Shown: piece after piece, positions 55,466 through 62,242 of the stretch
How positions within the stretch are numbered: position 1 is the first letter of the stretch
Layout of the letters: every line of letters starts with the position of its first letter
Source: an uncultured Candidatus Binatia bacterium
GTDB lineage: Bacteria; Desulfobacterota; Binatia; UBA9968; JAJDTQ01
Assembly (NCBI GenBank): GCA_965242525.1
Contig: OZ251459.1
Coordinates: 2,137,515 to 2,201,514 of the forward strand
DNA length: 64,000 nt
Direction: 5' to 3'
The notes under the pieces: model-generated
The model's input: the letters and a program-made list of their open reading frames with translations, nothing else
Database searches by the model: none
What the model was told of the DNA's origin: nothing
Program-made: the position numbers and the translations under genes

Positions 55466-56431
55466 TCACCGCCGCCGCACGTGCGGGTCCAGGGCGTCGC
55501 GCAGGCCGTCGCCCATGTAGTTCACGCTCAGGACCGTGAGCGAGATGGCGAGACCCGGCCAGAGGACCCGGGCGGGGGTGATGCCGAGGAAGGGCACGCC
55601 ATCGTAGAGCAACCGGCCCCAGGTGGGGAAATCGGACGGGAAACCGAGGCCCAGGAAGCTCAGGGCGCTCTCGGTGATGATGGCATGGGCGATGCCGAGG
55701 GTGGCCGCCACCGTGATGGGGTTCAGGGCGTTGGGGAGGACGTGCTTCACGATGACGTGGTGCGGCCCCGCGCCCATGCCGCGGGCGGCGAGTACGAACT
55801 CCCGCTGCTTGACCGAGAGCACCTCCCCGCGAACGATGCGCGCGGTCTGCATCCAGCTCGTCATGCCGATGACCGCGACCACCAGGACGAATATCCCGAG
55901 CTCCGGTCCCAGGGCGGCGCGCAGCGGGTCCCGGAACAGCATGATGGCCACCAGCAGCAGCGGCAGCACCGGCAGGGCCAGGAACAGGTCGGTGAGCCGC
56001 ATGAGCGGACCGTCGAGCCTCCGGAAGAAGCCTGCGGTGACGCCGGCGAACGTCCCCAGTGTCAGTGACAGCACCATTGCGCCGACTCCCACCGCGAGCG
56101 AGACCCGCCCGCCCGCCAGCACCCGGGCCAACATGTCGCGGCCCAGGTTGTCCGTGCCCATGGGGTGGGCCAGCGACATGCCCCGGTTCCGGGCCGCGTA
56201 GTCGAGGTATTGCGGATCCACGCCGTGGACCGCGGACCCGAGCAGCACCGCCAACGCGACCACCGAGAACACCGCGGCGCCGGCCAGGGCGCCCTTGTGT
56301 CGCAGGAACTGGCGCCACACGTCCCGGGCCGGCGAGGGGCGCGCCGGCGCCGCGGCCGGTCTCCGGTCGAGCGAGGGGCCTCCCGATCCCGCGGCCGGTT
56401 CCCGGGCGGACTCCGGAACCCCGTCAGTCAT
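55466..56431 (-). CDS. ABC transporter permease (DppC/OppC-like)
   Basis: Multiple TM segments and a binding-protein-dependent transport motif region (ESALSFLGLGFPSDFPTWG). Confidence 0.85.
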   Translation of the reverse strand: MTDGVPESAREPAAGSGGPSLDRRPAAAPARPSPARDVWRQFLRHKGALAGAAVFSVVALAVLLGSAVHGVDPQYLDYAARNRGMSLAHPMGTDNLGRDMLARVLAGGRVSLAVGVGAMVLSLTLGTFAGVTAGFFRRLDGPLMRLTDLFLALPVLPLLLVAIMLFRDPLRAALGPELGIFVLVVAVIGMTSWMQTARIVRGEVLSVKQREFVLAARGMGAGPHHVIVKHVLPNALNPITVAATLGIAHAIITESALSFLGLGFPSDFPTWGRLLYDGVPFLGITPARVLWPGLAISLTVLSVNYMGDGLRDALDPHVRRR

Positions 56432-56535
56432 GCCGGTCCCTCGAGTCCGGCGCGCCGCGGCGGCATCCGCCTCCGGATGGAACGCCGTGACCGGCGCCGC
56501 GAAGAGGAACCCCGGGAACGCCGCCGTCCAAGACG

Positions 56536-57549
56536 TCAGTCATACCGGATCCTCGGGTCCAGCACGCCGTAGAGGACGTCCGCTGCCAGGTTGAACGCCA
56601 CGATCAGCACCGCGAAGAGGAAGGTCACGGTCTGTACGGTGGGGATGTCCGCGCTCTCGATGGCGCCGATGAGCAACTGGCCCACGCCGTTGATGCGGAA
56701 TATCTGCTCGGTGATGATGGCCCCTGCGAAGGTGGACGGCAGCCCCAGGGCCGCCACCGTGACCACTGGGATCATGCTGTTGCGCAGCACGTGGACCAGG
56801 ACCACCACCGGCTCGGCCAGCCCCTTGGCCCGGGCCGTGCGCACGTAGTCCCGGTTGAGGTTCTCCAGGACCGCGGAGCGCGTGAACCGGCTGAGTTGCG
56901 CCGCGTTGAACAGGCCCAGCACCGTCACCGGCATGATCATCTGCTTGACCTGGTAGCCGAAGCTCTCCAGGTCCGTCACTCTATGGGTGGTGTCGTAGAT
57001 GGACGGCAGCCAGTCGAGGCCGACGCTGAAGACCACGATGAGCACCGTTCCGGTGAAGAACGTAGGGATGGAGAAACCCACCATGGTGACGAAGGCGCCC
57101 ACCTGGTCGAAGACCGAATACTGCCGGTAGGCGGAGAAGACGCCCACCGGCACAGCCAGGACCAACGCCGCCAGGTAGGAGAGGCCCACCACGGTCAGGG
57201 TCTGCGGCAGCCGCTCCGCGATCAGGTCCACCACCGGCGCCCGGGTGGACCAGGAGCGCACGCGCAGGCGCTCCGCGGAGTCGCCGACCTCGATCCCCCA
57301 CAGTCGCTCGACGAGGTTGAGGGGCTCGTTGACCATGAACTGGCCGAGCCACCTGAAATAGCGCACGTGGAACGGTTGCCCGAGCCCCAGGCTCTCCCGG
57401 ATGGCTTCCCGGGTCTCCGGAGGGATCGTCAGCGGGAGCCGGGCCGTGGGGTCGTTGGGGGCGAGGTCGAGCAGGGCGAAGACGATGAAGCTGATGGCCA
57501 GCAGCGTCGGGACCGAGAACAGCAAGCGTCTGGCCGCGTACCTGGACAT
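56536..57549 (-). CDS. ABC transporter permease (DppB/OppB-like)
   Basis: MSRYAARRLLFSVPTLLAISFIVFALLDLAPNDP and RTARAKGL motifs. Confidence 0.9.
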   Translation of the reverse strand: MSRYAARRLLFSVPTLLAISFIVFALLDLAPNDPTARLPLTIPPETREAIRESLGLGQPFHVRYFRWLGQFMVNEPLNLVERLWGIEVGDSAERLRVRSWSTRAPVVDLIAERLPQTLTVVGLSYLAALVLAVPVGVFSAYRQYSVFDQVGAFVTMVGFSIPTFFTGTVLIVVFSVGLDWLPSIYDTTHRVTDLESFGYQVKQMIMPVTVLGLFNAAQLSRFTRSAVLENLNRDYVRTARAKGLAEPVVVLVHVLRNSMIPVVTVAALGLPSTFAGAIITEQIFRINGVGQLLIGAIESADIPTVQTVTFLFAVLIVAFNLAADVLYGVLDPRIRYD

Positions 57550-57614
57550 GGACGGGACCCGTGCGCCCTACCGGCCGGGGAGGGCGCGGGAGGAGTTGCC
57601 GTGCGGGTCCCGGA

Positions 57615-59342
57615 TCAGCGCGGCGGCCGGCGATGCCACTCCTGGACGTTCCACAGGGTTGCGTCCCAGGCGTTGTGGCGCACCCCTCCGAGGGACAGCG
57701 CCCGGGCCGCCACCTCGCCCCGGTGGACCAGCGGGATCACCGCCCCGTCGCCCACCAGCATGTCGTTCATGCGCTTGGCGATTTCGGCGCGCCTCCCGAT
57801 CCCCGGAGTCTTGGCAAGCAACGCCGCGAGTTCGTCGTACTCCGGGTTGCAGTAGCGTGAGATGTTGCGGCCGATCCACTGGTTCCCGGGCGCCGGGATC
57901 TCCTCGCACAGCCAACCCTGCAGGTATGCCTGGGGATCGGTGCCGTCGAAGTTGTTGGTGTACATCTGGATGTCCGCGTAGAACTTCTGGTAGGTGTCCG
58001 GGCTCGCCGGATCGCTGCCGAAGAACACCGACCCGCTGATGTTCTTCAACTCGGTCTCGACGCCGATCTCCCGCCACATCTGCTTGACCAGGGCCTGGGT
58101 GCCCTGGCGGACCGAATTGGTGGAGGTCTGGTAGAGGATCGAAAGCCGCACCCCGTCCCTGGCGCGGACCCCGTCCGGGCCGCGCGCCCAGCCGGCTTCG
58201 TCCAGCAGCCGGTTGGCCCCGGCCACGTCCCGGGTCCTGCACCAGTCGTTGGCCGCGGAGGCATAGACCGGCGGGGCCGGGAGCACGTTGCAGGTGACCC
58301 GACCCGCGGGGCCGTAACCCGCGTCCACCAGGACCTCCCGGTCGATGGCCATGGACAGGGCGCGCCGCACCGCGGGGTCCGAGAGGAAGGGGTGGGGGTT
58401 CCTGCCGTCCTGATAGGTGGAACGCTTGGCGCCCAGGGCCGGATCGGGGTTGGTGAGCTGCACCACCAGGCGCTCCACCAGGGTGCCGAAAGCGGACAAC
58501 ACTTCGCCCTTGCCCGCCTTGGCCATGACGGCGAGGATCTCCGGCTCCACCTGCAGGTTCCAGCCATAGTCGAACTCGCCGGTCTCCAGCACCGCCCGAG
58601 CCGACGAGACCGCGTCTCCACCGCCCTTCAGCAGGACCGAGGAGAAGGCCGGGCGGTCAGGGTCTCGGTAGCGGTCGTTGAGTACGTAGCGGACCACGTC
58701 GTTGGCCCGGAACTCCTGCACCTCGAAGGGGCCGGTGCCCACGGGACCGAAGTTCTCCTCCGTGCACTCCGGCGCCCTGGCGCCCATGCACTTCTCGAAC
58801 TGCTTCTTCTGGAGGACCGGACAGACCGAGCCGGCGAACGGGGCATAGGGGAACGGCATGGGGACGGCGAAGGAGATCCGCACCGTGTGGTCGTCCACCG
58901 CCTCCACGGACGCCACGTTCTGGAACCGGCTGGCCGCGTTGCAGCCGCCCTCGGGATGCATGCAGTAAGCCGCGGTGAAGGCCACGTCCGCGGCGGTGAA
59001 CGGCGTGCCGTCCGACCACACCACGTCCTTTCGGAGCTTCCAGGTGATGGACTTGAGATCCGCGGCGACTCCGCGGTTGGCCACGGTGGGGATCTCCGAC
59101 GCCAGGGCCGGCGACATGACGCCGTTCTCGTCGTAGCGCACCAGCGGCTCCAGGACCAGGGCGGCCGCGTGGATGTCCTTGGTCCCCCCCGACAGGAGCG
59201 GGTTCAGGATCGACGGCGCCTGCCAGTAGAGCAGCTTCAACTCGCCGTCCGCGCCGCGCCCGGCTTGCGCCGGGGACGCCAACGCCGCCAGAGCCGCCGC
59301 GGCCGCGATGAACAGTCCGAGCAATCGCATCTTCGCCCTCAT
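57615..59342 (-). CDS. ABC transporter substrate-binding protein, family 5 (peptide/nickel type)
   Basis: 575 aa from the ATG verified at 59342, with a signal peptide MRAKMRLLGLFIAAAAALAALASPAQA and family-5-like ITWKLRKDVVWSDGTPFTAADV. Confidence 0.85.
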   Translation of the reverse strand: MRAKMRLLGLFIAAAAALAALASPAQAGRGADGELKLLYWQAPSILNPLLSGGTKDIHAAALVLEPLVRYDENGVMSPALASEIPTVANRGVAADLKSITWKLRKDVVWSDGTPFTAADVAFTAAYCMHPEGGCNAASRFQNVASVEAVDDHTVRISFAVPMPFPYAPFAGSVCPVLQKKQFEKCMGARAPECTEENFGPVGTGPFEVQEFRANDVVRYVLNDRYRDPDRPAFSSVLLKGGGDAVSSARAVLETGEFDYGWNLQVEPEILAVMAKAGKGEVLSAFGTLVERLVVQLTNPDPALGAKRSTYQDGRNPHPFLSDPAVRRALSMAIDREVLVDAGYGPAGRVTCNVLPAPPVYASAANDWCRTRDVAGANRLLDEAGWARGPDGVRARDGVRLSILYQTSTNSVRQGTQALVKQMWREIGVETELKNISGSVFFGSDPASPDTYQKFYADIQMYTNNFDGTDPQAYLQGWLCEEIPAPGNQWIGRNISRYCNPEYDELAALLAKTPGIGRRAEIAKRMNDMLVGDGAVIPLVHRGEVAARALSLGGVRHNAWDATLWNVQEWHRRPPR

Positions 59343-59413
59343 GCCCCCGCCCTCCGGGTCTCTTCCGGAACCTCCGGTCAATTCCGGCTCGACGTGTTTC
59401 TCCCTGTGAAAAA

Positions 59414-59475
59414 GCGCGTCCTTCGACTTCGCTACGCTACGCTCAGGACGAACGGGGCAATCGTTCGGGGTTTCC
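59414..59475 (+). repeat. Truncated copy of the MITE-like family (core + right TIR-like end)
   Basis: GCGCGTCCTTCGACTTCGCTACGCTACGCTCAGGACGAACGGGG followed by CAATCGTTCGGGGTTTCC. Confidence 0.5.
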
Positions 59476-59497
59476 TTCGGCAAGGCCCGGTCCGCGG

Positions 59498-60349
59498 TCA
59501 ACTGAACAGGACCTTGGCCATCTCCGACCGGTACCGGTCCGCCAACTCGCTTCCCGGCCCCAGGACCTCGAAGATCCGGACCATCGCCTTGCGGGCGCCG
59601 TCGTCCTCGAAGGCGCGGTCTTTGCGCAGCACCGCCAGGAACTCTTCCAACGCGGCCTCGTAGAGCTCTTCCGCGGCAAGGGCCTGGGCCAGCCGGAAAC
59701 GCAACTCCACGCTGTCCGGGGCCGACGACAACCGCTGCCTGAGGGAATCCACGTCCGCGCCGTCCCCCTGGCTCAACTGCTGCCGGGCGATCAGCCGGTC
59801 GGCCTCCCTGCGCTCGGGCGAGCCCGGGGGCACCCGCTCGAGCAGCGCCAAGCCGCGCTCCGCATCCGTACCGAGCAGGATGCGTCCCATGCCGAGCAGC
59901 GCCCCCGCGTGGGGCGGCGACTCGTCCAGCACCTGTTGGTAGATTTTCGATGCCCCTTCCGCGTCGCCCCGGGACCACAACCCGTCCGCCTCGGCCGCCA
60001 TCTCGTCCTGACGCGAGGGCGCCACCGAACCCAGGACCTCGCGGACTCCGGCTTCGGGAAGCGCCCCGGTGAACTCCGCGGCAACGGCGCCGTCCTTGAA
60101 GACCTTGACCGCGGGGATCCCCTGTATGCCGAAGCCGGACGCAAGCCCGGGGTTCTCGTCCACGTTGACCTTGGCCAGGAGGAGCTTGCCCTCGTATTCC
60201 TCCACCACCCGCTCCAGCACCGGACCCAGGACCCTGCACGGGCCGCACCACGGCGCCCAGAAGTCCACCGCCACCGGCGTTTCTTCGGAACGCTTCAGCA
60301 CTTCCGCTTCGAACTCGGCGTCGCCAACGTCGAAAACCAGCGATTCCAT
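59498..60349 (-). CDS. Thioredoxin-domain protein with C-terminal TPR-like domain (YbbN/CnoX-like)
   Basis: 283 aa from the ATG verified at 60349, with VDFWAPWCGPCRVLGP and a TPR-like tail. Confidence 0.85.
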   Translation of the reverse strand: MESLVFDVGDAEFEAEVLKRSEETPVAVDFWAPWCGPCRVLGPVLERVVEEYEGKLLLAKVNVDENPGLASGFGIQGIPAVKVFKDGAVAAEFTGALPEAGVREVLGSVAPSRQDEMAAEADGLWSRGDAEGASKIYQQVLDESPPHAGALLGMGRILLGTDAERGLALLERVPPGSPERREADRLIARQQLSQGDGADVDSLRQRLSSAPDSVELRFRLAQALAAEELYEAALEEFLAVLRKDRAFEDDGARKAMVRIFEVLGPGSELADRYRSEMAKVLFS

Positions 60350-60405
60350 GATGTTCCGGGACCTTTCCGCAGGGCCGGACCGGGTACGGGCGAGAGCCCG
60401 GCCCG

Positions 60406-60891
60406 CTATTCCCCGAGCGGGTCGAAGTCCGACCCGTTGAGGGTGAACCGACGCTCCACCGGGGTGGGCTTCAGGATCGTCTGCATGACGTAGCACCCGT
60501 TCTCGGCGTTGCGGACCACTGCGGCCACCCGCTCCGCGGGCTCGTCGGACTCCAGGTCCAGCCTGGTCTCGAACCCGACCCCCTGGGCCTCCACGGTCTC
60601 CCGCAGCACCGACCCCTGGCTCTTGAAACGCCCGGTCACGTGGACCCGGGCCTTGCCGATCTTCACCTTCATCATTTCCCCGTACCGGGAAACCTGGGTC
60701 AGCAGTCAGAACCCCAGGGAAAGCGCGAAGTACGCCAACGGCGGCGGCGCGCTGTTGTCGCCGCCGGTCCGCTCGGCCTCGTCGCACAGGACGGTGAACC
60801 CCCGGGCCTCGCCGCTCTTCTTCTGCCGTTCCAGGGCCGCGGCGTCGGCCTCGATCACGATCTCCCGCTTGACGGTCACGTCTTCGGCCAT
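60406..60891 (-). CDS. OsmC/Ohr-family peroxiredoxin-like protein with in-frame TGA (candidate selenocysteine) at codon 62
   Basis: ORFs 60706..60891 and 60406..60675 are in the same frame and separated only by the TGA at 60706-60708. The joined product reads ...PPPLAYFALSLGF[TGA]LLTQVSRYGEMMKV...AENGCYVMQTI. The TGA aligns with the first conserved OsmC Cys, and the second Cys is present. Confidence 0.55.
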
Positions 60892-60923
60892 ATATCAACC
60901 TCCAGGGTTTGGTTTGCGAAACA

Positions 60924-61163
60924 GGAACCTCCGAACGATCGGGACAGGGGGCAAGGCTTCCTTCGACTTCGCCTCGCGTCCTTCGACTCCGCTTCGCTAC
61001 GCTCAGGACGAACGGAGATGGGAGTCCACGCTCAAGGCGAACGGGGATGGGAGCGCAACCCTTCCCAACCGACTCGTGCTGGTCACCCATGTTCAAGGCG
61101 AACGGGGATGGAGTGTCAGGGCGAGGGAGTCCATCCCGGATGCCTCGATCGTTCAGCGGTTCC
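60924..61163 (+). mobile_element. MITE-like element, copy 3 (240 nt)
   Basis: TIRs GGAACCTCCGAACGATCGGGACA (60924-60946) and TGCCTCGATCGTTCAGCGGTTCC (61141-61163), with an internal core plus diverged ..CAAGGCGAACGGGGATGG.. subrepeats. Confidence 0.6.
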
Positions 61164-61229
61164 AAAGGTAACCCATCAGCCGGAGACCGTCAATCGACCC
61201 GGCTGCACGAAGCACCGTCAAGCACCGTC

Positions 61230-61730
61230 ATGGCCCGGCGACACGCAGCCCTGATCCCGCTTTCACGCGACCATCACCAGGGGTTGACCCTGGCCTTGCG
61301 CTGCCGCAAGCACGCCCTCGGGCAGCTCAACCCCGGCGACGCCGCATCCCTGGAGGCATGCGCCGCGGAAGCCTCCCGTTTCTTCGGCGAGAGCCTGACG
61401 CCCCACTTCGAGGCCGAAGAGAAGGTCCTGTTCCCGCTGATGGCGGAATACCGGGAGAGCCGGGAGCTCGTGGCCGAGCTCCGGGGCGAGCACCGGGAGT
61501 TCCACCGTCTGCTGGCGCGGGCCGGGGATCCCCGCGGGCTGCGGAAGTTCCTGTTCGACTTCGGCGACCTGCTGGAGCGGCACATACGGAGCGAAGAGCG
61601 CGGCCTCTTCCCCGCCTTCGAGAGGCTCGTGCCGCAGGAGGAAGCCGACCGGGCCGGCCGGGAGTTGCGGCAAACCCTGGAAGGGAGCCGTGGGGCGTCC
61701 CGAGACCCCGAACTGCCGGAGTCGTCATGA
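61230..61730 (+). CDS. Hemerythrin-like (HHE cation-binding) domain protein
   Basis: 166 aa with H...E and H...E spacing in LTPHFEAEEKVLFPL, LRGEHREFHRLL and LLERHIRSEERGLFP. Confidence 0.65.
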   Translation: MARRHAALIPLSRDHHQGLTLALRCRKHALGQLNPGDAASLEACAAEASRFFGESLTPHFEAEEKVLFPLMAEYRESRELVAELRGEHREFHRLLARAGDPRGLRKFLFDFGDLLERHIRSEERGLFPAFERLVPQEEADRAGRELRQTLEGSRGASRDPELPESS

Positions 61731-61749
61731 CGAAACCCCGAACGGCCCT

Positions 61750-61793
61750 CCCCGTTCGTCCTGAGCGCAGCCGAAGCCGAGTCGAAGGACGCG
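61750..61793 (-). repeat. Isolated core of the MITE-like family (inverted orientation)
   Basis: CCCCGTTCGTCCTGAGCGCAGCCGAAGCCGAGTCGAAGGACGCG. Confidence 0.5.
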
Positions 61794-61804
61794 TAGCGTA
61801 GTAT

Positions 61805-61901: not shown

Positions 61902-61904
61902 GTA

Positions 61905-62045
61905 GAAACCTCTGAACAATCGGGACAGAGAGCATGGGCGCGTCCTTCGACTTCGCTTCGCTACGCTCAGGACGAACGGGAATAGGGGCGTCAGGGTGAG
62001 GGAATCGGGAATCCATCCTGGATGTCTCGATTGTTCAGAGGTTTC
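61905..62045 (+). mobile_element. MITE-like element, copy 4 (141 nt; best-preserved TIRs)
   Basis: GAAACCTCTGAACAATCGGGACA (61905-61927) versus TGTCTCGATTGTTCAGAGGTTTC (62023-62045): 22 of 23 positions are complementary. It has a single core subrepeat. Confidence 0.7.
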
Positions 62046-62154: not shown

Positions 62155-62163
62155 TAGTAGTTT

Positions 62164-62205
62164 CCCGTTCGTCCTGAGCGAAGCGAAGCGAAGTCGAAGG
62201 ACGCG
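62164..62205 (-). repeat. Isolated core of the MITE-like family (inverted orientation)
   Basis: CCCGTTCGTCCTGAGCGAAGCGAAGCGAAGTCGAAGGACGCG. Confidence 0.5.
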
Positions 62206-62242
62206 CTTTCCCAAGGGAGAGCCGGCATTGAACGGACGTTCC

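Follow-up and report, generated by a model that had tools for sequence, protein, structure and literature searches.

A gene on the minus strand (60406..60891) of a 64,000-nucleotide (nt) stretch of DNA from an uncultured Candidatus Binatia bacterium (contig OZ251459.1; the whole stretch is referred to as the window) is very probably a true selenoprotein gene of the OsmC family that carries its own recoding hairpin. The best explanation for the observations as a whole, held with nearly the same high confidence, is a 161-residue OsmC-superfamily redox protein in which the UGA at codon 62 would be read as selenocysteine (Sec). The initial annotation of the window had proposed a candidate OsmC selenoprotein at this site, an interpretation that is supported by (i) the score against the curated family NF041052, (ii) the presence of the TGA in 49 of 49 genome loci, (iii) the selection acting on the gene, and (iv) the hairpin evidence. 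The gene is a clear but unannotated member of the known OsmC-like selenoprotein family. Its modest novelty lies in the host lineage, in a conserved neighbor encoding a thioredoxin-tetratricopeptide repeat (Trx-TPR) protein, and in the clear constraint that the bacterial Sec insertion sequence (bSECIS) imposes on codons and amino acids. The current understanding of selenoproteins is left unchanged, and a specialist would not be surprised.

The interrupted gene and its redox positions

By direct reading of the minus strand, the gene runs from an ATG at 60891..60889 to a TAG stop at 60408..60406, comprises 161 codons plus the stop, and is preceded by a Shine-Dalgarno sequence, GGAGG (60899..60903, minus strand), 7 nt 5′ of the ATG. 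The N-terminus, MAEDV..VKRE, is also kept in the homolog P0001. The frame holds a single TGA, codon 62 (60708..60706), and the window copy has no other lesion. Two open reading frame (ORF) fragments, 60706..60891 and 60406..60675, share one frame, and direct reading bears out the claim of the initial annotation that they are split only by the TGA at 60706-60708. This codon is the predicted Sec, at the peroxidatic position and in the motif U-L-L-T (U62-L-L-T65); its surroundings read PPPLAYFALSLGF-TGA-LLTQVSRYGEMMK, with the upstream peptide context NSAPPPLAYFALSLGF-UGA-LLTQVSRYGEMMK. The second conserved Cys, predicted to be the resolving residue, is encoded by TGC at codon 133 (60493..60495, minus strand) within the motif AENGCYVMQT, in a region that reads RNAENGCYVMQT; it is intact, as had been claimed, and is invariant in Sec forms. 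Since TGA normally terminates 19 of the 30 long, coding-like ORFs of the window, recoding at codon 62 is local and the genetic code is standard.

For the family searches, Cys was put in place of the stop. The protein matches Pfam OsmC (PF02566) over residues 44-146 (E = 2.2e-13), a range that includes the TGA, so the domain match spans it. The NCBIfam profile NF041052 (OsmC_like_Se, “OsmC-related (seleno)protein”) is matched with 178.2 bits, relative to a curated cutoff of 95 bits, over profile positions 4-144 of 144. Joined across the TGA, the protein constitutes a complete OsmC domain, and its sequence places it in the OsmC superfamily, within the COG1765/YhfA-like branch. A family profile recovers OsmC (1VLA), Ohr (6MJN, 3EER, 1N2F), YhfA (1ML8), and others.

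In OsmC and Ohr proteins, the peroxidatic residue is the first Cys and the resolving residue the second. The initial annotation had assigned the TGA to the first catalytic Cys, and the comparisons agree. Both columns are invariant in a 40-sequence alignment, with Cys at positions 62 and 133 in 39/39 aligned full-length homologs, and, in a set of representatives of 1.8 billion clusters, nearly every full-length relative that could be aligned also has Cys at both. Cys occupies the equivalent of position 62 in the PDB entries 3CJE, 2OPL, 9WO1, 1VLA, and 2ONF, while C133 aligns with the second Cys of 3CJE, 1VLA, and 2ONF. Residues U62 and C133 fall on Pfam profile positions ~19 and ~85, as do Cys59 and Cys125 of E. 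coli OsmC. E38 is also invariant in the family and is at most a candidate equivalent of the catalytic Glu of Ohr/OsmC. Cys36 was considered as an extra redox residue and dropped, as it is C or S in Cys forms, and a single-sequence AlphaFold2 model of the Cys-form homolog P0007 was discarded (predicted local distance difference test score of 34).

The closest solved relative is 3CJE, an OsmC-like Cys form from structural genomics (E = 1.6e-12 by sequence and 2.3e-31 by family profile) whose molecule name, as given by the depositors, states no function. It has Cys at both positions (GLTGCVMTQ, KKGCFLEQT), whereas the window protein would have Sec at the first. Relative to E. coli OsmC and to Xylella and Pseudomonas Ohr, which are two-Cys hydroperoxide reductases, the window protein shares the Pfam domain and both redox positions but would carry Sec in place of the first Cys and belongs to a different, YhfA/COG1765-like subfamily with a DE...GG...P.P motif. 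Many distant relatives of ~380-416 aa (P0136, P0151-P0155, P0162, and others) are tandem proteins with two OsmC domains, one with both Cys residues and the other usually lacking the first and often the second; the lost first Cys is mostly replaced by Ser or Asp and in some cases by Thr, Ala, Gly, Glu, or Val. PDB 9WO1 (400 aa) may be of this tandem type.

OsmC-like selenoproteins were known from metagenomic surveys, as the initial annotation had stated. A UxxT family (COG1765/pfam02566) was first reported in 2005 from the Sargasso Sea (PMC1088965) and again from the Global Ocean Sampling dataset (PMC2398784), and reviews from 2022 and 2026 list OsmC-like selenoproteins. This family has the same domain, the same Sec position in U-x-x-T, the second Cys, and a SECIS-like hairpin past the UGA. 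The first reports came from marine plankton, while the window gene belongs to Candidatus Binatia, which is represented by soil and groundwater metagenome-assembled genomes (MAGs).

The codon itself is strongly conserved. A scan with one genome per species yields 49 OsmC-Sec genome loci, all of which have TGA at the homologous codon (49/49), as does an additional locus, L054; Cys-form homologs have Cys (TGC) there. The ortholog comparison that the initial annotation had suggested comes out in favor of Sec. The hosts of the 49 loci are mostly Candidatus Binatia or “Deltaproteobacteria” MAGs and otherwise include Udaeobacter and other Verrucomicrobiia (Verrucomicrobiota), Chloroflexota, Acidimicrobiia and other Actinomycetes (Actinomycetota), Eisenbacteria, and Acidiferrales. 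The find implies decoding of UGA as Sec in Candidatus Binatia and in several further lineages from soil and groundwater. As for the base call, the TGA is not an error, since the species is represented by three independent metagenome assemblies (L001-L003) in which it is identical.

Purifying selection acts on both sides of the TGA: measured against the window gene, codons 1-61 have a ratio of nonsynonymous to synonymous substitution rates (dN/dS) of 0.09-0.25 and codons 73-158 one of 0.13-0.24. Codons 63-66, which precede the next ATG after the TGA, retain their amino acids and vary synonymously, with T65 being 100% conserved and encoded by 4 codons. A search of 5.8 billion proteins returns 579 homologs, and the best matches are almost all C-terminal fragments of 89-103 aa that start just past the TGA, a pattern typical of selenoprotein genes that gene callers have truncated. 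P0007, with a TGC codon, is a true Cys form. The resulting Sec/Cys pair pattern corresponds to the standard criterion for selenoproteins.

The gene calls themselves are of some practical interest. Public calls at the locus consist of two unnamed ORFs of 61 aa and 89 aa, and in this genome and its relatives a single 161-residue selenoprotein is thus annotated either as this pair or as a lone C-terminal fragment, which can now be corrected. The sole gene call that reads through the UGA is a Joint Genome Institute (JGI) call, P0001 (L054, 400-900), the only close homolog that looks full-length, a protein of 166 aa with Trp at the Sec position and TGA as its DNA codon; this Trp and the C-terminal fragments are both annotation artefacts.

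Some loci depart from the common arrangement. Three orthologs (L043, L048, and L049) have extra frame disruptions or missing residues, which may be assembly errors or real decay. One groundwater MAG contig, L040, carries two tandem OsmC-Sec paralogs (1182-1649 and 1813-2307), both of which have the homologous TGA codon as well as a hairpin variant of their own. The second paralog, whose hairpin is UUUCCCGGUUCGGGAAA, is 33% identical to the window protein, and its divergent type is found again in L050; there is therefore a second subfamily that contains Sec.

The hairpin downstream of the UGA

The initial annotation had described a hairpin, UUUCCC-GGUACG-GGGAAA, that begins 13 nt past the UGA and occupies 60692..60675, and its position is as claimed. 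The pairing can be drawn in two registers. In the register favored by covariation (60676..60692, minus strand), the 5′ arm is UUUCCCG (60692-60686), the loop is GUA (60685-60683), and the 3′ arm is CGGGGAA (60682-60676); with the closing G-C pair open, this becomes a 6-bp stem with a GGUAC loop. The alternative, register A, is the originally proposed stem extended by one flanking G-U pair and spans 60693..60674. Register A is the more stable of the two at -9.5 kcal/mol, with the flanking G-U included, compared to -7.6 kcal/mol.

The comparative data favor the former register. Its paired columns, 17-23 with 27-33, have 96.9% of cells paired, and three pairs are changed on both sides in 12 cells, a score that 0/500 shuffles reach; registers slid from this one score lower. 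In register A, 90.9% of cells are paired and covariation does not rise above that of shuffles, although L017 and L022 fit it better. The compensatory changes found in distant homologs are U.G to G-C, C-G to U-A or G-C, and U-A to C-G or G-C; hairpins with both arms changed are exemplified by GCCCGGUACGGGC, GUCCGGUACGGAC, GGCCGGUACGGCC, and UGUCCCGGUUCGGGACA. Thus, of the initial proposal, the hairpin itself stands and its stem is the more stable register, but the stem is, on this comparison, preferably drawn one base shifted on the 3′ arm. The Binatia-type mRNA may adopt either conformer.

The bSECIS consensus (PMC13188914 Fig. 2A) comprises an upper stem of 4-16 bp topped by an apical loop of 3-9 nt, a G in the first two loop positions within the pattern N1-G-[G/U]-N-N2 in which N1 and N2 pair, a distance of 16-37 nt from the UGA to the apical loop, and a minimum free energy of at most -7.5 kcal/mol. 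The window hairpin has a 3-nt GUA loop on 7 bp or a 5-nt GGUAC loop on 6 bp, and in register A a 6-nt loop on 7 bp, all of which lie within these limits. The loop reads G-G-U-A-C, with the G pairing to the C, and its GGU (columns 23-25) is invariant in 50/50 sequences. The distance to the UGA is 19 nt, or 20 nt with the closing G-C pair, which is nearly the same as that of the G23/U24 loop of E. coli fdhF. The energy is marginal in the covariation register (-7.6 kcal/mol) and well within the limit in register A (-9.5 kcal/mol). With all of these features in place and the hairpin being specific to Sec forms, its earlier description as SECIS-like with GGU in the loop holds. Relative to the bacterial SECIS consensus (PMC13188914 Fig. 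2) and to E. coli fdhF, it is likewise a stem-loop within the coding sequence, but its stem is shorter at 6-7 bp, it has no clear conserved bulged U, and two registers are possible in the Binatia-type sequence.

Evidence that the hairpin is maintained by evolution, and is specific to Sec forms, comes from the sequences of its orthologs. Among 43 of them, the hairpin codons are nearly frozen (S68 TCC 100%, R69 CGG 100%, Y70 TAC 100%, G71 GGG 98%, and E72 GAA 95%), compared with a codon entropy of 1.2-2.5 bits for Ser, Arg, and Gly codons at its other positions. The pairwise proportion of synonymous differences (pS) is 0.1-0.35 in the hairpin segment vs 0.4-0.9 in the flanks. A hairpin that satisfies the model follows the UGA in 50/51 Sec forms vs 0/6 Cys-form genes, and the covariance model R1 matches only the OsmC-Sec hairpin sites in 700 kb (window plus loci), scoring 24 bits for the Cys form vs 52-78 bits for Sec forms. 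A search against Rfam gave no relevant match, SECIS or other, at gathering thresholds over the whole window or at E up to 10 over 60560-60800.

The hairpin is also reflected in the protein. Residues 68-72 are S-R-Y-G-E in Sec forms and variable in Cys forms, and residues 68 and 72 co-vary with the stem, changing from S/E (TCC/GAA) to A/H (GCC/CAC or CAT), V/R (GUC/CGA), or G/H (GGC/CAU) in L044-L047, L051, and L052. Because these two residues are tied to the stem in Sec forms and free in Cys forms, the SECIS within the coding sequence shapes the protein sequence. The comparison across homologs thereby illustrates cleanly how a bacterial SECIS can constrain both codon and amino acid choice inside a gene.

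Decoding of the UGA and rival readings

Several observations weigh against the selenoprotein reading. No tRNA gene is present in the window, and ARAGORN finds no tRNA-Sec in the window or in 41 loci; likewise, tblastn with E. coli SelA, SelB, and SelD yields no match in the window or in any fetched locus. The window also has no second selenoprotein gene, as judged by in-frame TGA junctions with high G+C at third codon positions on both sides; the other in-frame TGA junctions considered were all ordinary gene ends followed by the next gene. The 81-nt hairpin region folds no better than shuffles (z = -0.03). In addition, 13% of the UGA trinucleotides in the window (65% G+C) are followed by a hairpin that fits a simplified bSECIS model in which stems may not be interrupted; for 6%, the hairpin that follows is no less stable than that of the gene. 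An hhalign comparison of the family profile with E. coli OsmC is mis-registered, with a probability of 10.9%, and leaves the catalytic Arg and Glu unmapped. Finally, peroxidase activity is assumed from the superfamily. A literature search on Binatia and selenocysteine found nothing relevant.

These points differ in reach. As 64 kb of a chromosome of ~4.15 Mb were covered, the machinery result is uninformative rather than negative, and it appears unlikely that the Sec machinery is missing from the genome, because eight complete Binatia chromosomes, along with many other genomes, have kept both the UGA and the SECIS. The fold check suggested in the initial annotation gave a divided answer, with the bSECIS model being satisfied and the region as a whole indistinguishable from shuffles. 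Taken alone, the hairpin lies within chance expectation, and its significance therefore rests on the comparative data.

An improbable alternative is that the UGA is read through as Trp, Cys, or Gly by near-cognate or suppressor decoding, as might happen in a lineage whose Sec machinery has been lost, with the hairpin acting as a generic read-through stimulator. The failure to observe Sec machinery in the window and fetched loci would fit, as would the JGI call with W at a homologous TGA, although the latter is the choice of the caller and not data. Codon 62, however, corresponds to a redox Cys that is invariant in homologs, a classic site of Sec replacement, and Trp or Gly at this catalytic position would inactivate a protein that is under strong purifying selection. 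The hairpin, moreover, fits the SelB-type N1-G-[G/U]-N-N2 pattern at the canonical distance, and the family is curated as a selenoprotein (NF041052). More improbable still is a split OsmC, in which the UGA terminates a 61-aa N-terminal peptide and an 89-aa protein is initiated separately at the ATG at 60675. Public collections do call exactly these 61-aa and 89-aa ORFs, and nearly every homolog has an ATG-ATG pair after the hairpin, but codons 63-72, which lie between the stop and the ATG, are conserved as amino acids with synonymous variation at 63-66. Cys-form homologs are single polypeptides, no Shine-Dalgarno sequence stands out 5′ of the internal ATG, the hairpin is specific to TGA-containing genes, and the catalytic residue would be lost.

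The least probable account, already effectively refuted, is that the locus is a pseudogene or that a TGC or TGT was turned into TGA by an error in sequencing or assembly. The added frame disruptions in the MAG copies L043, L048, and L049 would be in keeping with it; against it stand the identical TGA in the three same-species assemblies and in all 49 loci from other species, and dN/dS values far below 1 on both sides. The decaying pseudogene with further lesions that the initial annotation had named as its refutation is not what the window holds, as the copy is intact and dN/dS is low. Taken together, the results on the UGA, on selection, and on the Cys homologs exclude error, pseudogene, and split gene.

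Gene neighborhood, proposed chemistry, and flanking features

The gene lies between a thioredoxin-TPR gene and a hemerythrin-like gene, an arrangement noted earlier and confirmed for both neighbors by Pfam. The former (59498..60349, minus strand, 283 aa) begins 56 nt downstream of the OsmC-Sec gene. Its product has an N-terminal Trx domain and matches Pfam Thioredoxin (4e-26), TPR_20 (4e-24), and TPR_19 (4.5e-11); the combination of N-terminal Trx, C-terminal TPR_19/TPR_20, and a CxxC in the form WCGPC identifies it as YbbN/CnoX type. A Trx-TPR gene is found on the same strand, at most ~1.1 kb downstream and mostly directly after the OsmC-Sec gene, in 28/49 loci, down to 54% identity of the Trx-TPR protein. 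No terminator-like site occurs on the coding (minus) strand in 59300-61400. The Trx-TPR gene is a probable co-transcribed reductant partner of the OsmC-Sec protein, a role that can reasonably be inferred from gene linkage. This neighbor is not mentioned in the available portions of the literature on the UxxT family.

A CxxC-type YbbN is reduced by thioredoxin reductase and supports peroxiredoxin Q (PMC10998233). In the same study, neither Trx nor YbbN reduces Ohr, which is lipoyl-dependent, while the context of the window gene suggests a thioredoxin-type partner. Two facts tell against such a partnership. The Trx-TPR neighbor is missing from 21/49 loci, and Xylella YbbN did not sustain Ohr activity (PMC10998233), so a Trx-TPR reductant for an OsmC-fold enzyme would have no precedent. 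That the Trx-TPR protein is the dedicated reductant of OsmC-Sec is accordingly a tentative proposal, and that the two genes form a dedicated selenoperoxidase-reductase module with the WCGPC Trx-TPR protein is, if anything, slightly more doubtful. The linkage nevertheless provides a testable reductant candidate for a poorly characterized OsmC subfamily. If true, the two-gene module would mean thioredoxin-type recycling for an OsmC-fold enzyme, unlike the lipoyl-dependent Ohr system, and would make the uncultured Binatia a lineage of soil and groundwater that uses Sec.

By analogy with the superfamily, the protein is somewhat more apt to be a hydroperoxide reductase than to have another function. 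The proposed sequence of events begins on the mRNA, where the hairpin within the coding sequence would place its apical GGU 19-21 nt past the UGA and, as a bacterial SECIS, would recruit SelB with Sec-tRNA(Sec) to the ribosome; both SelB binding and Se insertion are predicted steps. Sec62, in the first helix and at the peroxidatic-Cys position, would then attack the hydroperoxide to yield a selenenic acid, with which Cys133, at the resolving position, would condense to form an intramolecular selenenylsulfide, as expected from OsmC/Ohr homology. The selenenylsulfide would in turn be reduced by a thiol-disulfide oxidoreductase, for which gene linkage points to the WCGPC Trx-TPR protein as the likeliest candidate.

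The other neighbor, a divergent gene with a Pfam Hemerythrin domain (61230..61730, plus strand), provides context only; its linkage is restricted to close Binatia relatives (L001-L011, L032, L036, and L037). Past the Trx-TPR gene, the minus strand at 55466-59342 encodes a peptide-type ATP-binding cassette (ABC) transporter substrate-binding protein of the SBP_bac_5 family (575 aa, 57615..59342) and two permeases, in an order that is kept in the closest Binatia genomes. These genes have no obvious functional tie to the redox pair.

The intergenic spaces of this region contain repeats of 45-48 nt in both orientations, at 59411-59462, 60956-61022, 61746-61802, 61938-61986, and 62162-62209, with further copies at 60923-60956, 61904-61937, and 62013-62045. 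One copy lies in the 340 nt that separate the OsmC-Sec gene from the divergent hemerythrin gene. The repeat unit is approximately CCCGTTCGTCCTGAGCG(A/T)AGCGAAGCG(A/G)AGTCGAAGGACGCG, and the repeats look like extragenic elements of the repetitive extragenic palindromic (REP)/miniature inverted-repeat transposable element (MITE) type.

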